Shown: positions 5,247 to 22,052 of the stretch, one piece after another
How positions within the stretch are numbered: the stretch's first letter is position 1
Layout of the letters: each line of letters starts with the position of its first letter
Assembly: GCA_000004985.1 (NCBI GenBank)
Contig: GG738846.1
Origin: Naegleria gruberi
Lineage: Eukaryota
DNA length: 64,000 nucleotides
Strand: one strand, 5' to 3'
Program-made: the position numbers and the translations under genes
The notes under the pieces: generated by a model
Told to the model about the DNA's origin: nothing
The model's input: only the letters and a program-made list of their open reading frames with translations
Database searches by the model: none

Positions 5247-8174
5247 CTATGCTTCTTCAAAAGTGATTTCATCATTGTAAGGAGAAACCGAAGAAACTCT
5301 AACAAATACTAAATTTCCAGCAGCCCTATTTTGAGCTGACTTGACACTAGTCTTAAAAGCTGATTCCATAAGATAAAGCTCTGATGTGTAAGGAAGTTCA
5401 TTAGGATCCAAACTTGTAACAGAGTTCTTTCTAGTTTCTAATACAAGTGCCTTGTACTTATTAAGATTTGATGATTTGGTAAGATTTTGTTCAAAATACT
5501 TCAATAACCAAAAACGTTCACTCTTCTTTTGCAAACTATTGATAGCTCTAGTTGTTGGTTCAATAGCAAAGATCATTTCTTGAATTTCATCCCAGGTAAA
5601 TGGTTGTTTTTCTCCTCTCATTTGAGCCTTGAGTTGATAGTGAACCATCAAGTCGCTGTATCTTCTGATTGGAGATGTGACTTGAACATAGTTTGCACTA
5701 CCAATGCCTTGGTGGAATTTTGGTGATTGATTAATGCAAACACCTGCAATAGGGTAGAATTTCTTGTTAGAATCAACAACCAATTCACAAACATCCTTTT
5801 CAGGCAAGTTAGTACGAAGAGAAAGAATCTTTTGCATTTCTTCATTGGAAAGAAGAGGTGGAAGATCAGTAGTAACAGTTCTAGTACCTCTATAAGGAAC
5901 AGCAATATCATGTTGATGAGCATAGAATCCTCCAATTTCGTTGGCAGCAATCATAAATTCTTGTACCAATCTTCTAGAAGGACTCACAAGTTCCTCAAAT
6001 GTTGTGGAAACTTCAATATTCTTCTCAGAGTCGCTGACATAAACCTTTGGTCTTGGTGTCAAAGTTGGTGGAGTTGCACCTTTACCCATTCTAAAGGCAA
6101 AACGTAAATTAGCAACTTTAACCATATGTTCGAAAGCTTGTTGAACTTCAGGTTCAGCTTGGACAGTATTTTCAATAATGTTGTCAGCCATAGAGTAATC
6201 TACCTTCTTGACCTTTCCGAGTATTGCTGGAAAGACATCCCATTCAGATAGAGAACCATCACTATTAATCTTTGAAGAGAAGGTTAATGAAAAGTTTTCC
6301 TTCAAATCAGAAAGACTGAGAATGTTTGCACTCAGATCAGCAGCAATCATACTGAACTTAATGTCAGGCAGGTAAACACTGGATACTCTTTTTTGAGCTT
6401 CCTTATCGATGCTTGAGCCTTGATCAATGTATCTGGTAACATCAGCAATGTGAACATATATGTAGTATTCACCATTCTTAACTTCAATACTGACTCCATC
6501 ATCAACTTCTGTAGTCTTTGGATATTCGTCAATTGTAAATACAGTCAGGTGTCTCAAGTCTTTTCTGATTTTGCTGTCTGGATCTGATGCAGACATTATA
6601 GAATTCCTAGCTTCTTCCACAATTTGCTTAAATTTGTCCTCTTCTTTCATGTGGCACATATCTTCTTCCATTGACCTCAATAAGTGAATGTTTTGTGTTT
6701 TGAATAGTTTCAAATCTCTTGCAACTCTGAATGCCTGCAAGTGATCATCAGCACCTAGAGGTTTGAAAAATGCTTCATAAATCCTCTTTCTACTTTCAAG
6801 ATTAGAGTACATTCCCAGCGCATATTGTCTGAATACTCCTAGCCTCTCTGCGTCCTTTTGTTCATCGAGTTCTAAGTTATCCCTAGTTATTTCAATATCA
6901 GGTCGCATAGCTTTAATCTCCTTCATTATATTATTTCTTAATTGTTTGTAAAATAGACTCCTCTCTTCATTTGTTACCAAGAGACGATTCGTTATCTTGA
7001 GTAAGAAGAGCTTATCTAGAAGAATGTTTTCCTTTTCCTCGGATCCCATATGTTTCAATTCTTCGACTTCTCTAAGGGATCTGCATTCAAAATTGAGATT
7101 GGATGTATGTTTAAAGTAGAGTGGGTTTTTGTACAAGAATCTGTAGGCAGAGTAGAGGGCAGTAGCATCTGTAGATTGGAATAGGTGTTCTGAAGCTTCC
7201 TTGATAGTTATTTTGACATTCTTTCGTTGTAAAAATGATCTCCACATCTTGTCACAATCCTCAGTTGTAAGGTTTGAAATCATATTGGCACTATCAATTT
7301 GCATTTGCTTGGCATCATCAATGTTGAATCTTTTGTCATTACTCTCATTCGAAAATTGATAGGTTAATTGATTGGAATTTACAACCTTGTTCATACCATG
7401 TATGTCAACGATCAACCACTTGTTGTTATTTTCATCCTGTGACTCTGGTCCTGTTATTATTGCCAACTTTCTTTCAAACTCGTCATCATATTCAACTATA
7501 ATACTTTGAGGTGTTCGTGATTCTTGACTAAAAGCTCGAGACAAGTTGATAGAACCAGGTGAAGCAAATGTATTCAAGTTAGTGTGGAATGCTCTCTTCC
7601 CATATTGATTAGCTTCTCTTTGTATCTTATTCTTGTTAGGTGAAGGTGGTCCTGATGTGGTAGTTGTGGTTGTTGATTTTCTATAGATACGAGAGCCAAT
7701 ATATTGGATCTTTTTCTTAGTTTCATTTGGTGTGGAAGCGGAGGTGGATGGTATTATTTCATCTGTTACTGATGAAGAAGTGGCAGCAATATATTCTGGA
7801 TATGGTTCTTGTTGGAGGAAGAAAGCTTCTTCATCAAAGTATGGATTAACAGCATTAGGTTGATGATGATATTGTTGATAACGTTGTTTAGAATGACCTT
7901 GGTAGTATGTAATGTTGTGATAGTGATAATTCTGAGCAAATGCATCACTATTTGATGTGGTAGTTGTTGTGGTCTTTTTGATGATGGAAGGATTTAAATG
8001 ATGATTATAGGAAGTTGTTGGTTGGGTTGTGTTGGAGGAAGATCCTCCAAAGTTTTCACTGTAGAATTTGTTAACCACAGGTGGAGCATTTGGGAGAGCA
8101 TTTACATTGTTGAGGATGGATATGGATTGGGAGAGACCTCCTGTATACTTCTTGAATGAGGTGTTCTTTGACAT
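5247..8174 (-). CDS. RNB-domain 3'-5' exoribonuclease (RNase II/R, Dis3/Dss1-like) with a long N/T/S-rich N-terminal low-complexity region.
   Basis: A 975-aa ORF. RNB catalytic motifs are present, including ...VTSPIRRYSDLMVHYQL... and the upstream FTID...D core. No introns are detected. Confidence 0.7.
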   Translation of the reverse strand: MSKNTSFKKYTGGLSQSISILNNVNALPNAPPVVNKFYSENFGGSSSNTTQPTTSYNHHLNPSIIKKTTTTTTSNSDAFAQNYHYHNITYYQGHSKQRYQQYHHQPNAVNPYFDEEAFFLQQEPYPEYIAATSSSVTDEIIPSTSASTPNETKKKIQYIGSRIYRKSTTTTTTSGPPSPNKNKIQREANQYGKRAFHTNLNTFASPGSINLSRAFSQESRTPQSIIVEYDDEFERKLAIITGPESQDENNNKWLIVDIHGMNKVVNSNQLTYQFSNESNDKRFNIDDAKQMQIDSANMISNLTTEDCDKMWRSFLQRKNVKITIKEASEHLFQSTDATALYSAYRFLYKNPLYFKHTSNLNFECRSLREVEELKHMGSEEKENILLDKLFLLKITNRLLVTNEERSLFYKQLRNNIMKEIKAMRPDIEITRDNLELDEQKDAERLGVFRQYALGMYSNLESRKRIYEAFFKPLGADDHLQAFRVARDLKLFKTQNIHLLRSMEEDMCHMKEEDKFKQIVEEARNSIMSASDPDSKIRKDLRHLTVFTIDEYPKTTEVDDGVSIEVKNGEYYIYVHIADVTRYIDQGSSIDKEAQKRVSSVYLPDIKFSMIAADLSANILSLSDLKENFSLTFSSKINSDGSLSEWDVFPAILGKVKKVDYSMADNIIENTVQAEPEVQQAFEHMVKVANLRFAFRMGKGATPPTLTPRPKVYVSDSEKNIEVSTTFEELVSPSRRLVQEFMIAANEIGGFYAHQHDIAVPYRGTRTVTTDLPPLLSNEEMQKILSLRTNLPEKDVCELVVDSNKKFYPIAGVCINQSPKFHQGIGSANYVQVTSPIRRYSDLMVHYQLKAQMRGEKQPFTWDEIQEMIFAIEPTTRAINSLQKKSERFWLLKYFEQNLTKSSNLNKYKALVLETRKNSVTSLDPNELPYTSELYLMESAFKTSVKSAQNRAAGNLVFVRVSSVSPYNDEITFEEA

Positions 8175-13066: not shown

Positions 13067-13840
13067 ATGTCTCTTCCCCTTCTGAAAATTAAGAAATGGT
13101 CAATTCCGATAAATGAAACATCGAAACTAAGTGCCAAGCAACAAATTATGATTATTCAATATGCTGGTCAATTGTTTGAGTTGACTAGTATGGTGGAAGG
13201 ATTGATAACTCCATTGATGAGAGGGGAGGATTTAACAATTGCTAATTCAGATTATTTATTTGATTTGGAAAGAAATGATCTTTATTTGAGTACTATTTGT
13301 AGAGCTAGAGAAGGGAAAATTTTACAATTTCTAGTAAAGCCAGGAGATTGGGTCGAGAGAAATCAAGCTGGAATAATTATTGAGAGAGAAAAAAAAGTTG
13401 AGGAGTGGAAATTCCTTAAACCAGGTAGAATTCTCGAAGTTAATTTAAAAGTTGGAGATCACGTTGGCTTTTTTTATTCACCATTCACAATGATGGAGAA
13501 GGAAAGTGGCGAAACTAATCTTCCATTAGCTGATTGCAAATTTATTGGAATTAGCAATGAAAATCCAAAATATAGACCTGATATGGCTCCTCAAATGTAT
13601 TATTTTGAGAATCACAATTGTGGAATTAGTACAAAAGAATACTATACTGAAATATATGATATAGAGTGGCTTGTTAAAGAAGGTCAATTGGTAAAGAAGG
13701 GAGATTTACTTTGTTCATATCAAGTACCCAAATTAAGATTGGAATTTATGAGTCCATATGATGGGAAAATTGTGTGGCTCAGAAGAGATGATTCCATGTT
13801 CATTGGGGATTCATTTTTTGAAATAATAGTTCACCAATAA
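13067..13840 (+). CDS. Hypothetical protein with two lipoyl/biotinyl-like hybrid-barrel motifs. No modifiable EAMKM lysine is present.
   Basis: A 257-aa ORF. GKILQFLVKPGDWVERNQAGIIIEREKKVEEWKFLKPGRILEVNLKVGDHV and GQLVKKGDLLCSYQV...DGKIVWL fit the G.V...V..GD.V..GQ.L..IE..K....I.AP..G.V pattern of lipoyl/biotin carrier domains. Confidence 0.45.
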   Translation: MSLPLLKIKKWSIPINETSKLSAKQQIMIIQYAGQLFELTSMVEGLITPLMRGEDLTIANSDYLFDLERNDLYLSTICRAREGKILQFLVKPGDWVERNQAGIIIEREKKVEEWKFLKPGRILEVNLKVGDHVGFFYSPFTMMEKESGETNLPLADCKFIGISNENPKYRPDMAPQMYYFENHNCGISTKEYYTEIYDIEWLVKEGQLVKKGDLLCSYQVPKLRLEFMSPYDGKIVWLRRDDSMFIGDSFFEIIVHQ

Positions 13841-13853
13841 AGTTTCCACCAAA

Positions 13854-16126
13854 TTATTCTACTAAAATGGTTGAAGAAACAACCTTATTATCAAGTAATT
13901 TTCTAACTTCCATATTGAATGGACGTTTTGCAAGAATATTCTGAACAGTTTGTCTCAAATTTGTAAAAATCTTCCACTCATTACAAGCATTATCATCTGG
14001 TAATTGAATGACAACATCAAAGACTGGATCGGCTTTCAATTGAAGTCTCATCTTTTCACCATCTTTTGTTGCGTTTCTATCACCTAATCAATTATTGAAA
14101 ATTAAAATTACTGCAATATTGTAAACTTACTCATAATTACACTTTCAACACCACCCAACAAGTCGCATAAAATTGGATTTTTGAGAATGGATTTCATATC
14201 ACCATGCGCACTACCACAAAGAACAACCCCTCTCTGTGCGATGGTTCTTGCAGTACTGACCTCATCCCTGGTTCCAATCTCATCAATTACAATGACTTCT
14301 GGTGTGTGATTCTGAACGGCTTGAATCATTACTTCTTGTTGTCTTCTAATGTCAGCTACTTGCATTCTTCTGGCCTTACCAATCGCCACATGAGGTACAT
14401 CTCCAAAACCACCAATCTCACAAGAGGTGTCAACTACGACAACTCTTCTTGATTCAGAAAGCGTCTTGGCAAAATCTCTGATAAAAGTCGTCTTTCCTGA
14501 ACCTGGTTTACCCAAAAGCAAAATGCTCTTCCCTTGTTCAATCAAGTCTGAGAATACTTTCGATCTTCCCATTACTGCCCTGCCTACTCTCAATGTGAGT
14601 CCAATAATTTTTTCACTTCTATTGAGCATGGCACTAATTCTATGTAAGGCGCCATCGATTCCAGCTCTGTTATCAGTTCCAAAGGATAGCTTACTGACAA
14701 CTTCATCAATGTCCTCCTGTTTAACAATAAATGAGTTATCAATGTGCGATTCCTTCTTGTGGTAGTAGAATAATTCATAGGGTCTTCCCTTATCCATGGC
14801 CACTTCAATTAAATTCATCACGTCCTCACCTGAAATTGTTGACAACTGTTCTTGAATCTTCTTTGGGAATAACTCCAAGAAACTGTAAATTTGATTAATA
14901 ATTGTGACATTGTAATCAGTTTGATGAGTTAGAATTGCAACATCTTGTTGAGCAGACTCCTGACCTGCTGTTGGAGATTTCTTAATTTGGAGTATGTCCA
15001 AAATGAAATTCCACAATTTTTTCACTTCAGAATCCACTTGAGCAAACACTTGTTTTGCCTCATCTTCCAAAGGAGGTGTCATGGCCTTACACAGCTGTAC
15101 CAGAGTTCTGACATCTCCAGAAGCATAATTCAACATTTCTTCAGTAAAAACTTTCTTTGCCCAACTATTTCTCATATGAAGATTCTTGCCCAAATCTTTG
15201 AAAGCATTTCCTGGAACGTTATAGAGCATACACAAATCATTGAATGAAATATTTCTTTGGGTTTGATGAAGAATTTGATAGAGAATTGAAGTGTCCACAA
15301 TTGAGGAAACACAAATATCAAAGTCCTTATATAGTCCACATAAATCATTCTCACAATTGTGAATAATTTTCAAAATGGTTTCGTCTTCAAGTATTTTCTT
15401 TACAGTTTCGGTGATGGTTGGATTTTTGAGTTTCATATCGAACAAGTATTGAGTGTTGTGAGCTGAAATCTGTACAAGAGTCAACACTCCATTAATTCCC
15501 AAATTAACACCTTCGCAATCGAATCCTACTAATTTGGTATTGAACTTGGACATGTCAGAGAGGAATTGCTGGGCAAGAGCTGGAGTATTGACAAGCACAA
15601 TATCGCTCTTATTGGCATTACCTACACTCACAACAGTGGATGAGCTGCCAGCTGTCAACTGAGAACTATTAGCAACAGAAGTAGAAGCAGAAGTAGGTCC
15701 ATTTGCTTTTTTAATTTGCTCTACCATGGAATTCAATTTAGTTCTAACATTTTTAATTGACCTTTTGCCTGTCTTATCAAAGGCAGCTGCCAATTGCAAG
15801 GTTGTTAATTGTTCCAACAAGTCGTAATCACTAGAAAATTGTTGATGCAAATTGGCCAAGACAAGGTTCGGAACTTGAACCATAAGAGTCATGGTATCTT
15901 GCTCTTCATTATAAGAGAACCATCTCTCACTCTCTCCACTAAATAATACATCATAGATGTATTGCCAATCGGGAAGGTCTTCGAATTGTGTCTGATGAGG
16001 TTCGAATGAGTAGCCATTCTCTAAATACTTTTCAAATATTTCACTCTTGGTTGGTTTTCTATTGCTGAGCGCACTGATGGAGCAGACACGGATGAGTTTA
16101 TCAAGATAATTGGTTGTGGTGGCCAT
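13854..16126 (-). CDS. Fusion protein with a DEDDy-type 3'-5' exonuclease domain followed by a SpoIIIAA/ycf45-like P-loop ATPase; 2 exons.
   Basis: Exons are 14131-16126 and 13854-14083. The intron is 14084-14130 (GTAAGT...TTAG, 47 nt), and the phase fits. The exonuclease block is VGFDCEGVNLGINGVLTLVQI...KIIHNCENDLCGLYKDF. The ATPase block is GKPGSGKTTFIRD...VVVDTSCEIGG...IVIDEIGTRDE...CGSAHGD. Confidence 0.6.
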
Positions 16127-17450: not shown

Positions 17451-18953
17451 ATGTCAGTCTTTTACAAGTTTAAATCCGCAAAGGATTATGATACAATCAC
17501 AGTGGAAGGCAATGGCATTTCCTTGTCCAAATTAAAACAGAGTATTGCTACACAAAAGAAGTTACCTAAAACAATGGACTATGATCTTGTCTTGGAAAAC
17601 GCTCAAACTGGAGAAGTGTACAAGTATGATCAAGATGTTGTACCAAAGAATACTTCAGTGCTGGTTAAAAGAGTACCTGTAACAAGAAGTGTAGGATCTG
17701 CTAATAATAATCCTTCTGCAAATTCCCAGCCTGCCATCATTCCTCCATCTAATAATAATTCATCATCACTCCTCTCTAATAATAATAATAATACAAATCA
17801 AAAGAGTTTAACAGGAAGCCTATTTTCAAGAAATACATCGTCAAATGATAGCGGAGCATCTTTTGCTTCTGTTTTTTCTGGATCAAGTGGGAACGAGACA
17901 ACAGAGGAAACAATAGGAGAAGAACAAAAATTGAGAGATTTAGCAAATAATACAGGAAAATGGATTCCGGATACACCAAGTCAACAACAGCATCATTCCC
18001 AATCAAAACGTATTCCTCCACCAAATTATATTTGTCACAGATGTAAAAAGACAGGACATTACATTCAACATTGTCCAACTAATGGCGATGCTAGATATAA
18101 TATTAAAACTATTCGTATTCCAGTTGGTATTCCAAAGAGTTTTTTACAACCTATTGAAGCACCAAAAGCCGATTCAAATAATACAGTTGTAATGCCTGGA
18201 GGAAATTTAGCTGTTTTGGCACCAAATGAAAAGGAATTTTCAAAGATTTTAGGTAAGAAGAATGTGGAAATTAGGGAAGTTCCAAAAGAATTCCAATGCT
18301 CAATTTGTTCAAAGATCTTAACTGATGCTGTCACCATTCCATGCTGTAAAACAAATTATTGCAATAATTGCATTACTCATGCATTAATACATGATACTCA
18401 TTTAACTTGTCCAAATTGTAAATCTCCTGATCAATCTATTGATGCTCTAGCTCCAAATTATGATCTAAGAAGGAGAGTTGACAATTATAAAGCAAATTTG
18501 GATTCAGGTGCTCCTCCTTCACTTCTCAGTACTGCAACAAGTCAATTTAATTCATCATCTAGTTACCATAATTCTAATAACAACTCTAATAATTATAATA
18601 ACAGTAATAGTGCTAAATCATCTCCACCTAGTCAAAATTACAATAGCAATAGTGGTGGAAGTAACAATCACCGATATGATAGTCATGACAATAAACAAGA
18701 CAATCGATCTGGATCTTACAATAATAGAAGTAATAATAGTTATAGAAGATCACCTCCAAGAAGAGATTCCTATGATAACAGAAGAGGAGATAATTATGAT
18801 AATAGAAGAGGAGGCTACAATGACAGAGGCAATGATAGAGGAGGTAGAAATGATCATTCGTACGATAAGTATGATAAGAGAGGTGAAAAGAGAGGAGGTT
18901 ATGATAATCGTCGTTCAGATTATGAAAGTGATAGAAAAAAGTATAAGGATTAA
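17451..18953 (+). CDS. RBBP6/Mpe1 homolog (DWNN domain + CCHC zinc knuckle + RING/U-box) with an RD/RG/RS-rich tail.
   Basis: The N-terminal DWNN is MSVFYKFKSAKDYDTITVEGNGISLSKLKQ...VLVKRVP. The knuckle is CHRCKKTGHYIQHCP. The RING-like region is CSICSKILTDAVTIPCCKTNYCNNCI...CPNCKS. The tail carries repeated DNRRG/DKRG units. Confidence 0.8.
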   Translation: MSVFYKFKSAKDYDTITVEGNGISLSKLKQSIATQKKLPKTMDYDLVLENAQTGEVYKYDQDVVPKNTSVLVKRVPVTRSVGSANNNPSANSQPAIIPPSNNNSSSLLSNNNNNTNQKSLTGSLFSRNTSSNDSGASFASVFSGSSGNETTEETIGEEQKLRDLANNTGKWIPDTPSQQQHHSQSKRIPPPNYICHRCKKTGHYIQHCPTNGDARYNIKTIRIPVGIPKSFLQPIEAPKADSNNTVVMPGGNLAVLAPNEKEFSKILGKKNVEIREVPKEFQCSICSKILTDAVTIPCCKTNYCNNCITHALIHDTHLTCPNCKSPDQSIDALAPNYDLRRRVDNYKANLDSGAPPSLLSTATSQFNSSSSYHNSNNNSNNYNNSNSAKSSPPSQNYNSNSGGSNNHRYDSHDNKQDNRSGSYNNRSNNSYRRSPPRRDSYDNRRGDNYDNRRGGYNDRGNDRGGRNDHSYDKYDKRGEKRGGYDNRRSDYESDRKKYKD

Positions 18954-19140: not shown

Positions 19141-21270
19141 ATGAGCCAACAACAAAACTCATCACGGAACAATAATTATTCATACAATAATAGTAGTAAT
19201 TATAATCAATCATCGTCTTCTAGTGGTGGCAGAAGACAATATAATTCATCATCATCAGAAAGTAGTAGATATCACGATTCCTCACATAATAATAGACAAC
19301 AAGATAATAGGCAAGGAAGAGGTGGCTATAATAATAATAATACTGGTGGTGGTGCTGGAGGAGATTACAGATCATCTTCAAATAATTACAATAACAATAG
19401 AAGAAGTGATAATTATGAAGGAAATTATAGAAATTATGATCATCATAACAAGACTGTGAGTATGAAACAATCTCATCACAACAATTCCTCATCTTCTGAT
19501 TCTTTTAAATATAAAGAAAATTATAATAGAAGAGATGATAGGATAAGTAATAATAACAATAGGATTTCGGAACAAGATCATAAAAGAAAGACAGTTGATA
19601 GTAATAATGTAAACAATACTGAACATCAAGTAAAGAAAGTTAAAATTGATGAAAAACCTTCCCTTCCTCCTACTTTAAATAATTCGATCATCTCGGAAAA
19701 GAAGGATGAAAATACAGAAGAGAGATTGAAGCAACAATTAAATAACGAAACTCTTTTATTACAAAATAATGATGAAGAGCAAGTAGCAGCAAAAAGAGAA
19801 GAACGAAGAATGAGATTTAAACAAATGGAGGAATTAATTCTTTCAGAGGTTAATCCATCAACAGTAGAAAGTGAGCAAATGGAAGACAATAGCACTGAAA
19901 ATTCTGCTGATAGTGATGGCGATGAAGAAACAGTAGAACCATTGAGGGAGTATAATGCTAACGATGAGAGAGCATTATTTATTCATCAAATTGAAAAACA
20001 AAGAGAAAGGGAAATCGATGACAAATCTGATATTACAGAAGAAACAAAAGTAACTTCACTATATGATGAAGACAATTCAAACTCTGAATCACCAATCATT
20101 GACATGTTTGCAGATTCACCTGATACACTTGTAAAATTATTGAACACTAATAGTAATCTAGATAACAATACCTCAACAGAATTATATGATGATGCTGAAG
20201 GATATTACAGATATAACATTGGAGAAGTAATTAATCAACGATACAAAGTTGAACAATTCCTAGGACAAGGTGTTTTCAGTTGTGTTGTAAAAGCAACTGA
20301 TTTGAATTCCACTAAAAACACAGCCCAAACACCTACATTAGTAGCTATAAAAATAATAAGAAATATTGAATCTATGAAAAAGGCAGGGCTAAAAGAATTG
20401 GATCTATTATCCAAAATCAATGAAAAGGATACCCAAGAATATAGTATAATTAAAATGGTTGAATCATTCACGTATAGAAACCATTTATGCATTGTATTCG
20501 AATTATTGGAGATGAATTTGAGAGATGTACTAAAGAATTATGGAAAAGTGCAAGGTCACCAACACAGTGTGGGTATTTCCATACAGGCATGCAAAATCTA
20601 TACAAAACAACTTGTTAATGCCCTAAAATATATTCAAGAATGTAATATAATACACGCAGATATCAAGCCTGATAATATTTTGCTGGATCACTCACATCAA
20701 TTTGTAAAATTATCTGATTTTGGATCAGCATGTCATATCAGTGAAAATACTATAACACCATATTTAGTGTCTAGATTTTATAGAGCTCCAGAAATTATTT
20801 TAGGAATGAAGTATTCTTATCCTATTGATATGTGGAGCATTGCTTGTACTATTTATGAATTGTACACTGGTAAAATTTTATTTACATCCCAAAACAACAA
20901 TGATCATCTGAGATTAATCATGGAATTAAAAGGTAAATTTCCAAACAAGGTTCTAAAGAGGTGTGCTTTTAGAGAAAATCATTTCGAAAGTGATGGTGCC
21001 TTTTTATTTAGAGAATTCGACAAACTCACCAAGAAGATCAAGATTTCTAAAGTATACTTCCAACGAAATACTAGAGATTTGAAAGCCATGTTATTGAACT
21101 CTATGCTCCAAAACCATCAACAAGATGAGAATGGATCTGAGCAAGCACTCATGGAAGAAAAGAAGCAAGTCATGTTATTGCATGATTTCTTAGAGAAGGC
21201 ATTAGCTCTGGATCCATCAAAAAGGTTGAGTGTTAATGACGCTTTACTGCATCCATTTATTAACAATTAA
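19141..21270 (+). CDS. PRP4-family (DYRK-related CMGC) serine/threonine protein kinase with an N/S/R-rich N-terminal domain.
   Basis: The kinase domain runs YKVEQFLGQGVFSCVVKA...VAIKIIRN...HADIKPDNILL...DFGSA...VSRFYRAPEIILG...LKGKFPNKVLKR. The RS/low-complexity N-terminus is typical of PRP4K. Confidence 0.7.
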   Translation: MSQQQNSSRNNNYSYNNSSNYNQSSSSSGGRRQYNSSSSESSRYHDSSHNNRQQDNRQGRGGYNNNNTGGGAGGDYRSSSNNYNNNRRSDNYEGNYRNYDHHNKTVSMKQSHHNNSSSSDSFKYKENYNRRDDRISNNNNRISEQDHKRKTVDSNNVNNTEHQVKKVKIDEKPSLPPTLNNSIISEKKDENTEERLKQQLNNETLLLQNNDEEQVAAKREERRMRFKQMEELILSEVNPSTVESEQMEDNSTENSADSDGDEETVEPLREYNANDERALFIHQIEKQREREIDDKSDITEETKVTSLYDEDNSNSESPIIDMFADSPDTLVKLLNTNSNLDNNTSTELYDDAEGYYRYNIGEVINQRYKVEQFLGQGVFSCVVKATDLNSTKNTAQTPTLVAIKIIRNIESMKKAGLKELDLLSKINEKDTQEYSIIKMVESFTYRNHLCIVFELLEMNLRDVLKNYGKVQGHQHSVGISIQACKIYTKQLVNALKYIQECNIIHADIKPDNILLDHSHQFVKLSDFGSACHISENTITPYLVSRFYRAPEIILGMKYSYPIDMWSIACTIYELYTGKILFTSQNNNDHLRLIMELKGKFPNKVLKRCAFRENHFESDGAFLFREFDKLTKKIKISKVYFQRNTRDLKAMLLNSMLQNHQQDENGSEQALMEEKKQVMLLHDFLEKALALDPSKRLSVNDALLHPFINN

Positions 21271-21293: not shown

Positions 21294-22052
21294 TTATTCC
21301 CAATCATCATCCTCATCATTTTGTGCTGCACTTGTAGCATTGTCAGATGTGGTGGCGTCACCACTAGCAGCAACAATATTATCACTGTTAACCTCTAATG
21401 TAGTGTCATTTGTTGCTAATGTTGTTTCATTCAATGATAAAACTTCGGAACCTAATTGCATTTTAATGTAGTCTCTAATCTCTTGTACGGAATTAAAATC
21501 ATCATTTAGAATATCCTTCAGAACGTCCAAATATAAATGTTCTTTAACACTTTCATTCTTGGTGTTTGTATTATTCAAAGATTCAAACAACTTTCTCTTC
21601 TTTTCATTTTCCTCAAAATTTAATTTTAATTGATAATATCTCTTCCAGAATAATATAAATGATATTTGTGAAGGGACAATGTTAGTATGAATTTCCTTTA
21701 ATTTTGGATCATTTTCCAACAATTTACTAATTTCATCAGTTTTAGAATCAATATCAATTTGAATAGTATTCAAATCATTTTCATCACTTAAATAAATTGG
21801 TGTTTTGTATGATTGTTCATTGTACAGAATATTTTCAATACTAATATTTGATGATGATTGATCCGAATCTCCCAATTCTGAAGCCAATTCATTAATCTTT
21901 ACAATACCAACAGAAACGGCATCAGCAAATTCATCAATATCCTTCTTGTACAACTCGATCAGTTGGTTGCCATTTTGTGTAACCGTTTGTGAAACTTGCT
22001 CAGCCAGCGATGAAAAGTAATCAAACATTTTTTTTAGAAAATTTTTTCTCAT
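21294..22052 (-). CDS. BSD-domain protein.
   Basis: A 252-aa ORF carrying the BSD signature ...ILFWKRYYQL... (the FW..Y[FY] motif). Confidence 0.5.
   Translation of the reverse strand: MRKNFLKKMFDYFSSLAEQVSQTVTQNGNQLIELYKKDIDEFADAVSVGIVKINELASELGDSDQSSSNISIENILYNEQSYKTPIYLSDENDLNTIQIDIDSKTDEISKLLENDPKLKEIHTNIVPSQISFILFWKRYYQLKLNFEENEKKRKLFESLNNTNTKNESVKEHLYLDVLKDILNDDFNSVQEIRDYIKMQLGSEVLSLNETTLATNDTTLEVNSDNIVAASGDATTSDNATSAAQNDEDDDWE

Follow-up and report, generated by a model that had tools for sequence, protein, structure and literature searches.

The window analysed here is a 64,000-nucleotide stretch of contig GG738846.1 from Naegleria gruberi (GenBank assembly GCA_000004985.1). On its minus strand, at 13854-16126, lies a single gene for a 741-residue protein that joins a winged helix, an Egalitarian-type DEDDy 3'-5' exonuclease, a long helix and a two-domain PilT/VirB11-class ATPase. 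The list of open reading frames (ORFs) contains a 672-codon stop-free frame, running from an ATG at 16126 to a stop at 14108 on the minus strand, that spans the exonuclease and the ATPase, as the first-pass annotation of this DNA had proposed, and a 65-codon ORF downstream of it (14051-13854, minus strand) in a different frame. Splice reconstruction and translation, with the segment GTAAGT...TAG removed, yielded a 2226-nt coding sequence of 741 amino acids, in which exon 2 codes for residues 666-741 (76 codons, including a split Ser codon) and extends the product from 672 to 741 residues. The same annotation had correctly called a missed 47-nt intron, but the figure of 65 residues that it gave for the extension merely counts the downstream ORF from its own ATG. 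The gene and its parts are listed below, with residues numbered on the spliced product.

13854-16126, minus strand: whole exonuclease-ATPase gene (exon 1, 16126-14131; intron, 14130-14084; exon 2, 14083-13854)
15695-16126, minus strand: N-terminal domain, residues 1-144, a winged helix (helices 4-19, 28-38 and 54-61, hairpin 70-81) followed by three helices
15605-15694, minus strand: Ser/Thr-rich low-complexity linker, residues 145-174
15068-15604, minus strand: DEDDy 3'-5' exonuclease domain, residues 175-353
15512-15520, minus strand: ExoI, D203/E205
15344-15346, minus strand: ExoII, D261
15113-15127, minus strand: ExoIII, Y334...D338
14978-15067, minus strand: long connecting helix, residues 354-383
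14627-14935, minus strand: PilT-N-like alpha/beta domain at the N-terminus of the ATPase, residues 398-500, with conserved DNRAG and LHRIS motifs
13857-14626, minus strand: RecA-like ATPase domain, residues 501-741, interrupted by the intron
14486-14512, minus strand: Walker A, GKPGSGKTT (residue 539)
14408-14443, minus strand: presumed Asp box, VVVVDTSCEIGG (residue 562)
14363-14374, minus strand: Arg pair, ARRM (residue 585)
14273-14296, minus strand: Walker B, VIVIDEIG (residue 611)
14201-14218, minus strand: presumed His box, CGSAHG (residue 637)
14084-14130, minus strand: 47-nt intron, GTAAGTTTACAATATTGCAGTAATTTTAATTTTCAATAATTGATTAG, with GT..AG ends, whose excision restores the frame
13854-13856, minus strand: stop codon

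Both the orthologues and the conservation of exon 2 support the 47-nt splice. The spliced junction peptide of the N. gruberi protein, which reads ...VIMS up to the junction and DRNATKDGEKMRLQLKADP... beyond it, is matched by the Naegleria lovaniensis orthologue (...VIMSDRNATSDGEKMRLQLKADP..., with ...GGVESVIMSDRNATSDGEKMRLQLKADPIFDV... across the junction), and a heterolobosean-like genomic contig (L002; ENA contig k141_1094529) has no intron at this site (...VIVSDRAASSTEGEKMRLQVKSDP...) and reads through it as ...VIVSDRAASSTEGEKMRLQVKSDPIFDV.... Bacterial homologues are colinear past the junction to the same C-terminus, and exon 2, which encodes the conserved C-terminal beta subdomain of the ATPase, carries positions that are conserved family-wide (F687 is invariant; K676, E692, L716 and R726 are conserved in at least 90%). 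The L002 contig has a short intron of its own at 2190-2300, within the Walker A codons (LLLGKPG/gtatgt...ag/SGKTT), and intron positions are therefore not conserved among these relatives; its gene has been called as separate proteins, P0002 (541 residues) and a 183-residue fragment.

The fusion is not annotated in the public N. gruberi gene set. A word-indexed search with the N-terminal half alone, which returned two proteins, missed known orthologues and is uninformative on distribution, exposed the public model P0122 ('predicted protein, partial [Naegleria gruberi]', 282 residues). This model is 100% identical to residues 384-665 and ends exactly at the intron donor (...GGVESVIM), so it holds the ATPase core only; exact look-up found neither the 741- nor the 672-residue product in the protein collection. 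The gene model is corrected here from 282 to 741 residues. Maruyama et al. list an N. gruberi 'YCF45' (JGI 2396) as a gene of cyanobacterial ancestry and mention no exonuclease (PMC3087521), presumably owing to the fragmentary reference model.

The exonuclease domain is specifically of the Egalitarian (Egl) type, and all five of its catalytic residues are in place. Pfam assigns the nuclease family PF01612 to this half of the protein (residues 179-353, E = 7.9e-29; 101.1 bits against a cut-off of 23.6), and NCBIfam matches to RNase D/Pol I exonucleases were also found. The motifs FDCEGVNLG (residue 202), TLVQIS, HNCENDL (256) and NYASGD (333) contain the complete DEDDy set (D203, E205, D261, Y334 and D338): ExoI, D203-C-E205 in FDCEG, aligns with LDCEG in Egl and IDCEW in EXD2; ExoII, D261 in HNCENDL, with HDCRNDA and CSEDA, respectively; and ExoIII, Y334-A-S-G-D338, with YAAGD in Egl. 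Among PDB sequences, Drosophila Egl is the closest solved relative by a wide interval (E = 1.1e-28, 103.7 bits), followed by a reconstructed diDNase ancestor (42.5 bits), EXD2 (35), EXOSC10 (31) and WRN (26). The first-pass assignment to an RNase D/WRN type is therefore refined: the DEDDy class holds, but the affiliation is with Egl, as RNase D and WRN score only about 20-26 bits. Egl is likewise the best solved relative for three other family members (a chytrid protein, a Rhodelphis protein and one unnamed protein), at 83 vs 45, 100 vs 41 and 65 vs 29 bits against the next best.

Structural comparison gives the same result. A full-length monomer model was built with AlphaFold2 on an alignment of 42 family members, and its predicted local distance difference test score (pLDDT) exceeds 90 for residues 175-385. 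In a Foldseek search of the PDB with this model, Egl chains ranked first (E = 4e-14), with further matches to Trypanosoma brucei RNase D, Rrp6, EXD1 and Nibbler. The alignments to Egl extend beyond the exonuclease core of ~190 residues (229-334 columns), and the Egl exonuclease domain is itself followed by a 35-Å linker helix (bioRxiv 10.1101/2025.08.03.668247), to which we infer that the connecting helix 354-383 corresponds. In the model this helix joins the exonuclease to the ATPase, leading straight into it with no four-helix domain like the XAD of Egl in between, and no further C-terminal tail follows the ATPase.

The ATPase belongs to the SpoIIIAA/Ycf45 subfamily. It is a motor of the PilT/VirB11 class with both domains complete, rather than a classical AAA+ protein, because Foldseek aligns residues 398-741 over 320-400 columns (E = 4e-12 to 1e-9) with PINA (5f4h, E = 4e-12), DotB, PilU/PilT, GspE, FlaI and TadA/CpaF; model pLDDT exceeds 90 for residues 400-741. 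The earlier call of a SpoIIIAA/ycf45-like P-loop ATPase was borne out, with Walker A, Walker B and an arginine element (ARRM) all present and PF19568 (Spore_III_AA) matching residues 487-657 (E = 8.8e-13; 48.4 bits against a cut-off of 27), ahead of generic P-loop families and of weak VirB11 and T2SSE profile matches. Assignment to SpoIIIAA proper was rejected, as TIGR02858 reaches 74.5 bits (E = 8e-21) against an equivalog cut-off of 281.3 and only the broader PF19568 threshold is passed. A classical AAA+ identity was rejected as well, as the PF00004 match (28 bits) is confined to the P-loop region, positions 1-66 of the 131 in the profile, and the fold matches the PilT class. Among the 42 aligned members, G539, G542, G544, T546, D566, E570, R587, D615, E616 and G642 are invariant, as are R487, L494, H495 and R496 in the N-terminal part of the module; the two segments that we take to be the Asp and His boxes were assigned by position and pattern, from knowledge of the superfamily. 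Identity of 45-52% over ~320 residues links the ATPase to more than 100 bacterial proteins that bear the name 'R3H domain-containing' or 'SpoIIIAA', and the Pfam search detected neither the PTPase-like (PF25516) nor the R3H (PF01424) domain in the Naegleria protein, which ends at the ATPase C-terminal subdomain.

Residues 1-144 were modeled separately from three heterolobosean sequences, giving a winged helix and then three helices at a pLDDT of ~90. The following linker (residues 145-174) has a pLDDT below 50 in both models and differs between orthologues. Sequence methods showed no link between the Naegleria winged helix and the LOTUS or WH_Egal families; a LOTUS identity was tried by hhalign of the heterolobosean N-terminus against the LOTUS repeats of diatom-type members, and was dropped for want of any signal.

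The exonuclease-ATPase order is not confined to Naegleria. The N. lovaniensis orthologue (XP_044542245, P0001, 778 residues) is colinear, with 53% identity over 100% of the length, and has the same pair of Pfam domains. An exhaustive HMMER search returned 6004 proteins at E ≤ 1e-3; many of the 150 best representative clusters align without a break across both domains, from residue ~160-250 to ~727, and a hidden Markov model of the family exonuclease detected that domain in 54 of the 150. PF19568 is found in all 42 aligned members and PF01612 in 39 of them. Named members come from a diatom (Striatella unipunctata), Rhodelphis marinus, a green alga (Micractinium tetrahymenae), a chytrid (Synchytrium microbalum), a crinoid (Anneissia japonica) and two choanoflagellates (Salpingoeca urceolata and Didymoeca costata). 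The family extends, at a minimum, over Discoba, stramenopiles, Archaeplastida and the three major branches of the opisthokonts. A profile search with the 42-member alignment retrieved mostly bacterial ATPases and gained few extra fusions (Micractinium, for example). The search for the fusion in other lineages, which the first-pass annotation had suggested, thus reveals a widely distributed, uncharacterised eukaryotic family. The combination that it did not recognise is indeed absent from the papers we found, but it is not peculiar to the N. gruberi genome. An apparent single transcript was found in one lineage: a 2.5-kb contig (JGI sample 3300018834) holds one ORF with short non-coding flanks and AATAAA near its 3' end.

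In a rough neighbour-joining tree of the ATPase region, calculated without support values, the Naegleria proteins fall among the eukaryotic members, apart from the bacterial R3H group. A recent bacterial transfer followed by a private Naegleria fusion was rejected, as the fusion is common to many lineages and the ATPase groups with eukaryotes in this tree. The N-terminal additions vary across the family. Rhodelphis has a WH_Egal domain upstream of the exonuclease (E = 3.3e-7), the crinoid protein has a weak one in the same place (E = 1.4e-3), and diatom-type members have up to three OST-HTH/LOTUS domains there (E down to 5e-26). Two proteins from ENA/Logan contigs, P0187 and P0198, have a Gly/Thr/Ser-rich N-terminus with the Nup98 GLEBS (Rae1/Gle2-binding) motif PF21240 (E = 1e-9) together with degenerate exonuclease catalytic motifs, a hint that, in that lineage, the protein is tied to the nuclear pore or to the export of mRNA.

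Other architectures were noted alongside these. In the eukaryotic relatives P0163, P0193, P0226 and P0217 a SAP-like motif (...YTVSMLKEELRTRGLPVSGRKAELLERL...), identified by eye, replaces the exonuclease before the ATPase, and in P0128 (1753 residues) the entire ATPase module occurs twice in tandem. The closest non-Naegleria relatives of the ATPase, P0124, P0126, P0129 and P0130 (53-58% identity), have long N-terminal regions in which no exonuclease was detected, reflecting either repeated loss or incomplete gene models.

Comparison with known systems places each half of the protein. Drosophila Egl (PDB 9uju, 9rvy-9rwb) shares the DEDDy exonuclease-homology domain with all five signature residues, and both proteins have one or more winged helices on the N-terminal side of the exonuclease and a long helix after it. 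Egl comprises three LOTUS-like 'Egl domains', the exonuclease homology domain and the helical XAD, and binds structured RNA (PMC13186709). The WH_Egal/LOTUS domains that define it occur in other members of the fusion family, although the sequence of the Naegleria winged helix does not match them; as these domains accompany an Egl-type exonuclease, the N-terminal half of the fusion family shares the Egl architecture, and Egl lacks the motor half. Egl has instead the tetrahelical XAD, a dynein-light-chain motif and a BicD-binding N-terminus, and in animals it serves as an adaptor for mRNA localisation, for which Naegleria offers no obvious equivalent.

For the ATPase half, the Ycf45/R3H proteins of cyanobacteria, Chloroflexi and plastids (Synechocystis slr0692 and the Arabidopsis SPD1 type) also match PF19568 and are 45-50% identical to, and colinear with, the Naegleria module to its last residue. 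These bacterial and plant forms carry C-terminal PTPase-like and R3H domains, seen in P0003 and in almost every bacterial match, and no exonuclease, whereas the Naegleria protein has the N-terminal winged helix and exonuclease instead. SpoIIIAA of endospore formers shares the P-loop core and PF19568, but the Naegleria protein falls below the equivalog cut-off; SpoIIIAA, which drives the SpoIIIA-SpoIIQ channel, lacks nucleic-acid modules. Archaeal PINA has the same two-domain PilT-class fold, as do PilT, VirB11, DotB, GspE and FlaI, all with Walker A, Asp box, Walker B and His box in common with the Naegleria ATPase, and, like the Naegleria protein, it joins nuclease-superfamily and nucleic-acid-binding domains to the motor. 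However, PINA and the secretion ATPases are only 11-15% identical to the Naegleria ATPase; PINA has PIN and KH domains in place of DEDDy and winged-helix domains and acts on DNA junctions, and the targets of the pilus and secretion ATPases are membrane machineries. WRN, with its DEDDy exonuclease and RecQ helicase, and Rrp6 with Mtr4 couple a DEDDy exonuclease to an NTP-driven motor in a similar manner, although the WRN and Mtr4 motors are superfamily 2 helicases rather than a PilT-class ring ATPase, and the exonuclease domains of WRN and Rrp6 are detectable but distant homologues of the Naegleria domain (22-31 bits).

The best explanation overall, to which we assign a little better than even confidence, is a motor-plus-exonuclease acting on RNA or ribonucleoprotein (RNP). 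A hexameric ring is the probable assembly of the motor, by analogy with other PilT-class ATPases, and its probable target is nucleic acid, not a secretion apparatus: relatives of the motor carry nucleic-acid modules (R3H, SAP, LOTUS or KH/PIN), and the archaeal relative PINA is a DNA-translocating hexamer. The most likely activity would be the use of ATP to unwind or remodel RNA or RNP; the winged-helix and exonuclease surfaces would hold this substrate, and the tethered exonuclease would trim or degrade its 3' end. The coupling between the two enzymes, suggested by analogy, would follow a logic resembling that of WRN or Mtr4-Rrp6, and its site would be the cytoplasm or the nucleus, not an organelle. 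Remodelling that feeds 3' ends to the exonuclease is favored because the DEDDy site is intact and the accessory domains in the family are of RNA type.

Several points weigh against this explanation. The literature we found holds no biochemical, expression or localisation data for any family member, and the Ycf45/SPD1 relatives are themselves uncharacterised (PMC6180158). The Naegleria winged helix is not demonstrably of the LOTUS or Egl type, and the SAP-containing relatives and PINA, by analogy, point to a DNA substrate. Roughly one aligned member in four keeps the ATPase motifs but has lost DEDDy residues, and in Egl itself the five DEDDy residues can be mutated with no effect on RNA binding or in vivo function (bioRxiv 10.1101/2025.08.03.668247); nuclease chemistry may therefore not be the core function of the family. 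The loss of DEDDy residues and their dispensability in Egl feed the most serious of the alternatives, which we consider possible though clearly less probable than a working exonuclease: that the domain is a non-catalytic RNA-binding module, as in Egl and EXD1, and the protein an RNA-binding ATPase (a remodeller or chaperone of RNPs, for instance, or a transport factor). Among solved structures Egl stands well clear as the nearest relative of the exonuclease domain, in Naegleria as in the three other members compared, and functions with all of its signature residues mutated; moreover, seven members (P0125, P0187, P0198, P0203, P0244, P0261 and P0270) combine degenerate exonuclease motifs with intact Walker A and B. 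The D-E-D-Y-D set is nevertheless complete in Naegleria and in ~30 of the 42 aligned members, which argues for selection on catalysis in most lineages, and Egl too retains the motif, with a sign of possible residual activity noted by its authors (bioRxiv 10.1101/2025.08.03.668247).

A role in DNA repair or recombination, in which a PINA-like branch-migration or translocase ring would work with a WRN-like proofreading or resecting exonuclease, is improbable in our assessment. It draws on the best structural match of the ATPase half, PINA, which has a KH domain and, as a hexamer of the PilT class, drives the migration of Holliday junctions (PMC6061704), on the SAP motifs seen by eye in place of the exonuclease in four relatives, and on the fact that DEDDy domains of PF01612 also act on DNA (WRN, EXD2 and Pol I). 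However, the accessory domains found on the fusion itself (WH_Egal, LOTUS and Nup98-GLEBS) are RNA-associated, and the nearest relative of the exonuclease binds structured RNA. The first-pass annotation had also offered an organellar processing factor, here framed as a mitochondrial RNA or DNA enzyme descended from an endosymbiont or cyanobacterial ycf45 gene. Many red-lineage algae do encode ycf45 in the plastid, and the ATPase half shows 45-50% identity with proteins from Chloroflexi and cyanobacteria, but we judge this origin and location very unlikely. There is no space for a presequence ahead of the conserved winged helix, which is folded with confidence from residue ~4 onwards, and the residue at position 9 is acidic; the fusion family is present in animals, fungi and choanoflagellates; in the rough tree the bacterial R3H forms are separate from the ATPases that are fused to the exonuclease; and the Naegleria protein lacks the PTPase-like and R3H domains typical of Ycf45. 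That the fusion is an artefact of two neighbouring genes or of an assembly join is hardly credible: the public model holding the ATPase core alone would fit it, but one stop-free 672-codon frame crosses both domains, and the same order and linker recur in N. lovaniensis, the related genomic contig, the apparent transcript contig and dozens of clusters.

For the RNA-directed motor-plus-exonuclease, a deeper history can be proposed only tentatively. Winged-helix/LOTUS domains, an Egl-type exonuclease and a PilT-class ATPase may together constitute an ancient eukaryotic RNA-processing machine, possibly dating from the last eukaryotic common ancestor, of which Egl would be a motor-less derivative; the ring motor of such a machine, a hexamer of bacterial type, would deliver RNA to the tethered DEDDy nuclease or remodel it for that enzyme. 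If true, this would give Egl a deep evolutionary origin, and PilT/VirB11-class ATPases would prove to have a role outside organelles in eukaryotes.

Each domain is of a kind already known, and the combination is undescribed in the literature we found: no paper describes the exonuclease-ATPase fusion or gives functional data on a Ycf45/SPD1-type ATPase, the Egl structure papers do not mention ATPase-bearing relatives, and full-length family members stand in databases as 'hypothetical' or 'AAA+ ATPase domain-containing'. PilT/VirB11-class ATPases are regarded as prokaryotic pilus and secretion motors, and to our knowledge the eukaryotic ones comprise essentially only the uncharacterised plastid-type Ycf45/SPD1 proteins. 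The accessory domains (R3H, SAP as read by eye, LOTUS, WH_Egal and the exonuclease) argue that Ycf45 ATPases are nucleic-acid motors, and the recurring theme is a PilT-class motor with interchangeable nucleic-acid-binding modules. Placed behind an Egl-type RNA-binding exonuclease module, such a motor represents a testable new motor-nuclease architecture, and the fusion family suggests a source for the unusual LOTUS-plus-exonuclease module of Egl.

The genes around the locus were also surveyed, and are listed here in order of position.

5247-8174, minus strand: 975-residue ORF for a 3'-5' exoribonuclease of the RNase II/Dis3-like type, with an RNB domain and an RNase II winged-helix domain (PF00773, E = 8e-62)
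13067-13840, plus strand: convergent neighbour of 257 residues with two biotin/lipoyl-attachment-like stretches (PF00364, E = 5e-16)
17451-18953, plus strand: divergent upstream neighbour with DWNN, CCHC zinc-knuckle and RING/U-box-like domains, an RBBP6/Mpe1-type architecture
19141-21270, plus strand: 709-residue protein kinase with a long non-kinase N-terminus
21294-22052, minus strand: 252-residue BSD-domain protein

The RNB-domain gene encodes a second RNA-decay enzyme, ~6 kb from the exonuclease-ATPase gene. Only 13 bp separate the stop codons of the exonuclease-ATPase gene and its convergent neighbour, so the 3' ends of this pair must overlap or abut. The RBBP6/Mpe1-type protein has a long tail, with Asn/Ser-rich and Arg/Asp-rich parts; RBBP6/Mpe1 is an mRNA 3'-end processing factor in other eukaryotes. 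The kinase and BSD-domain genes are ordinary neighbours in a very compact arrangement.

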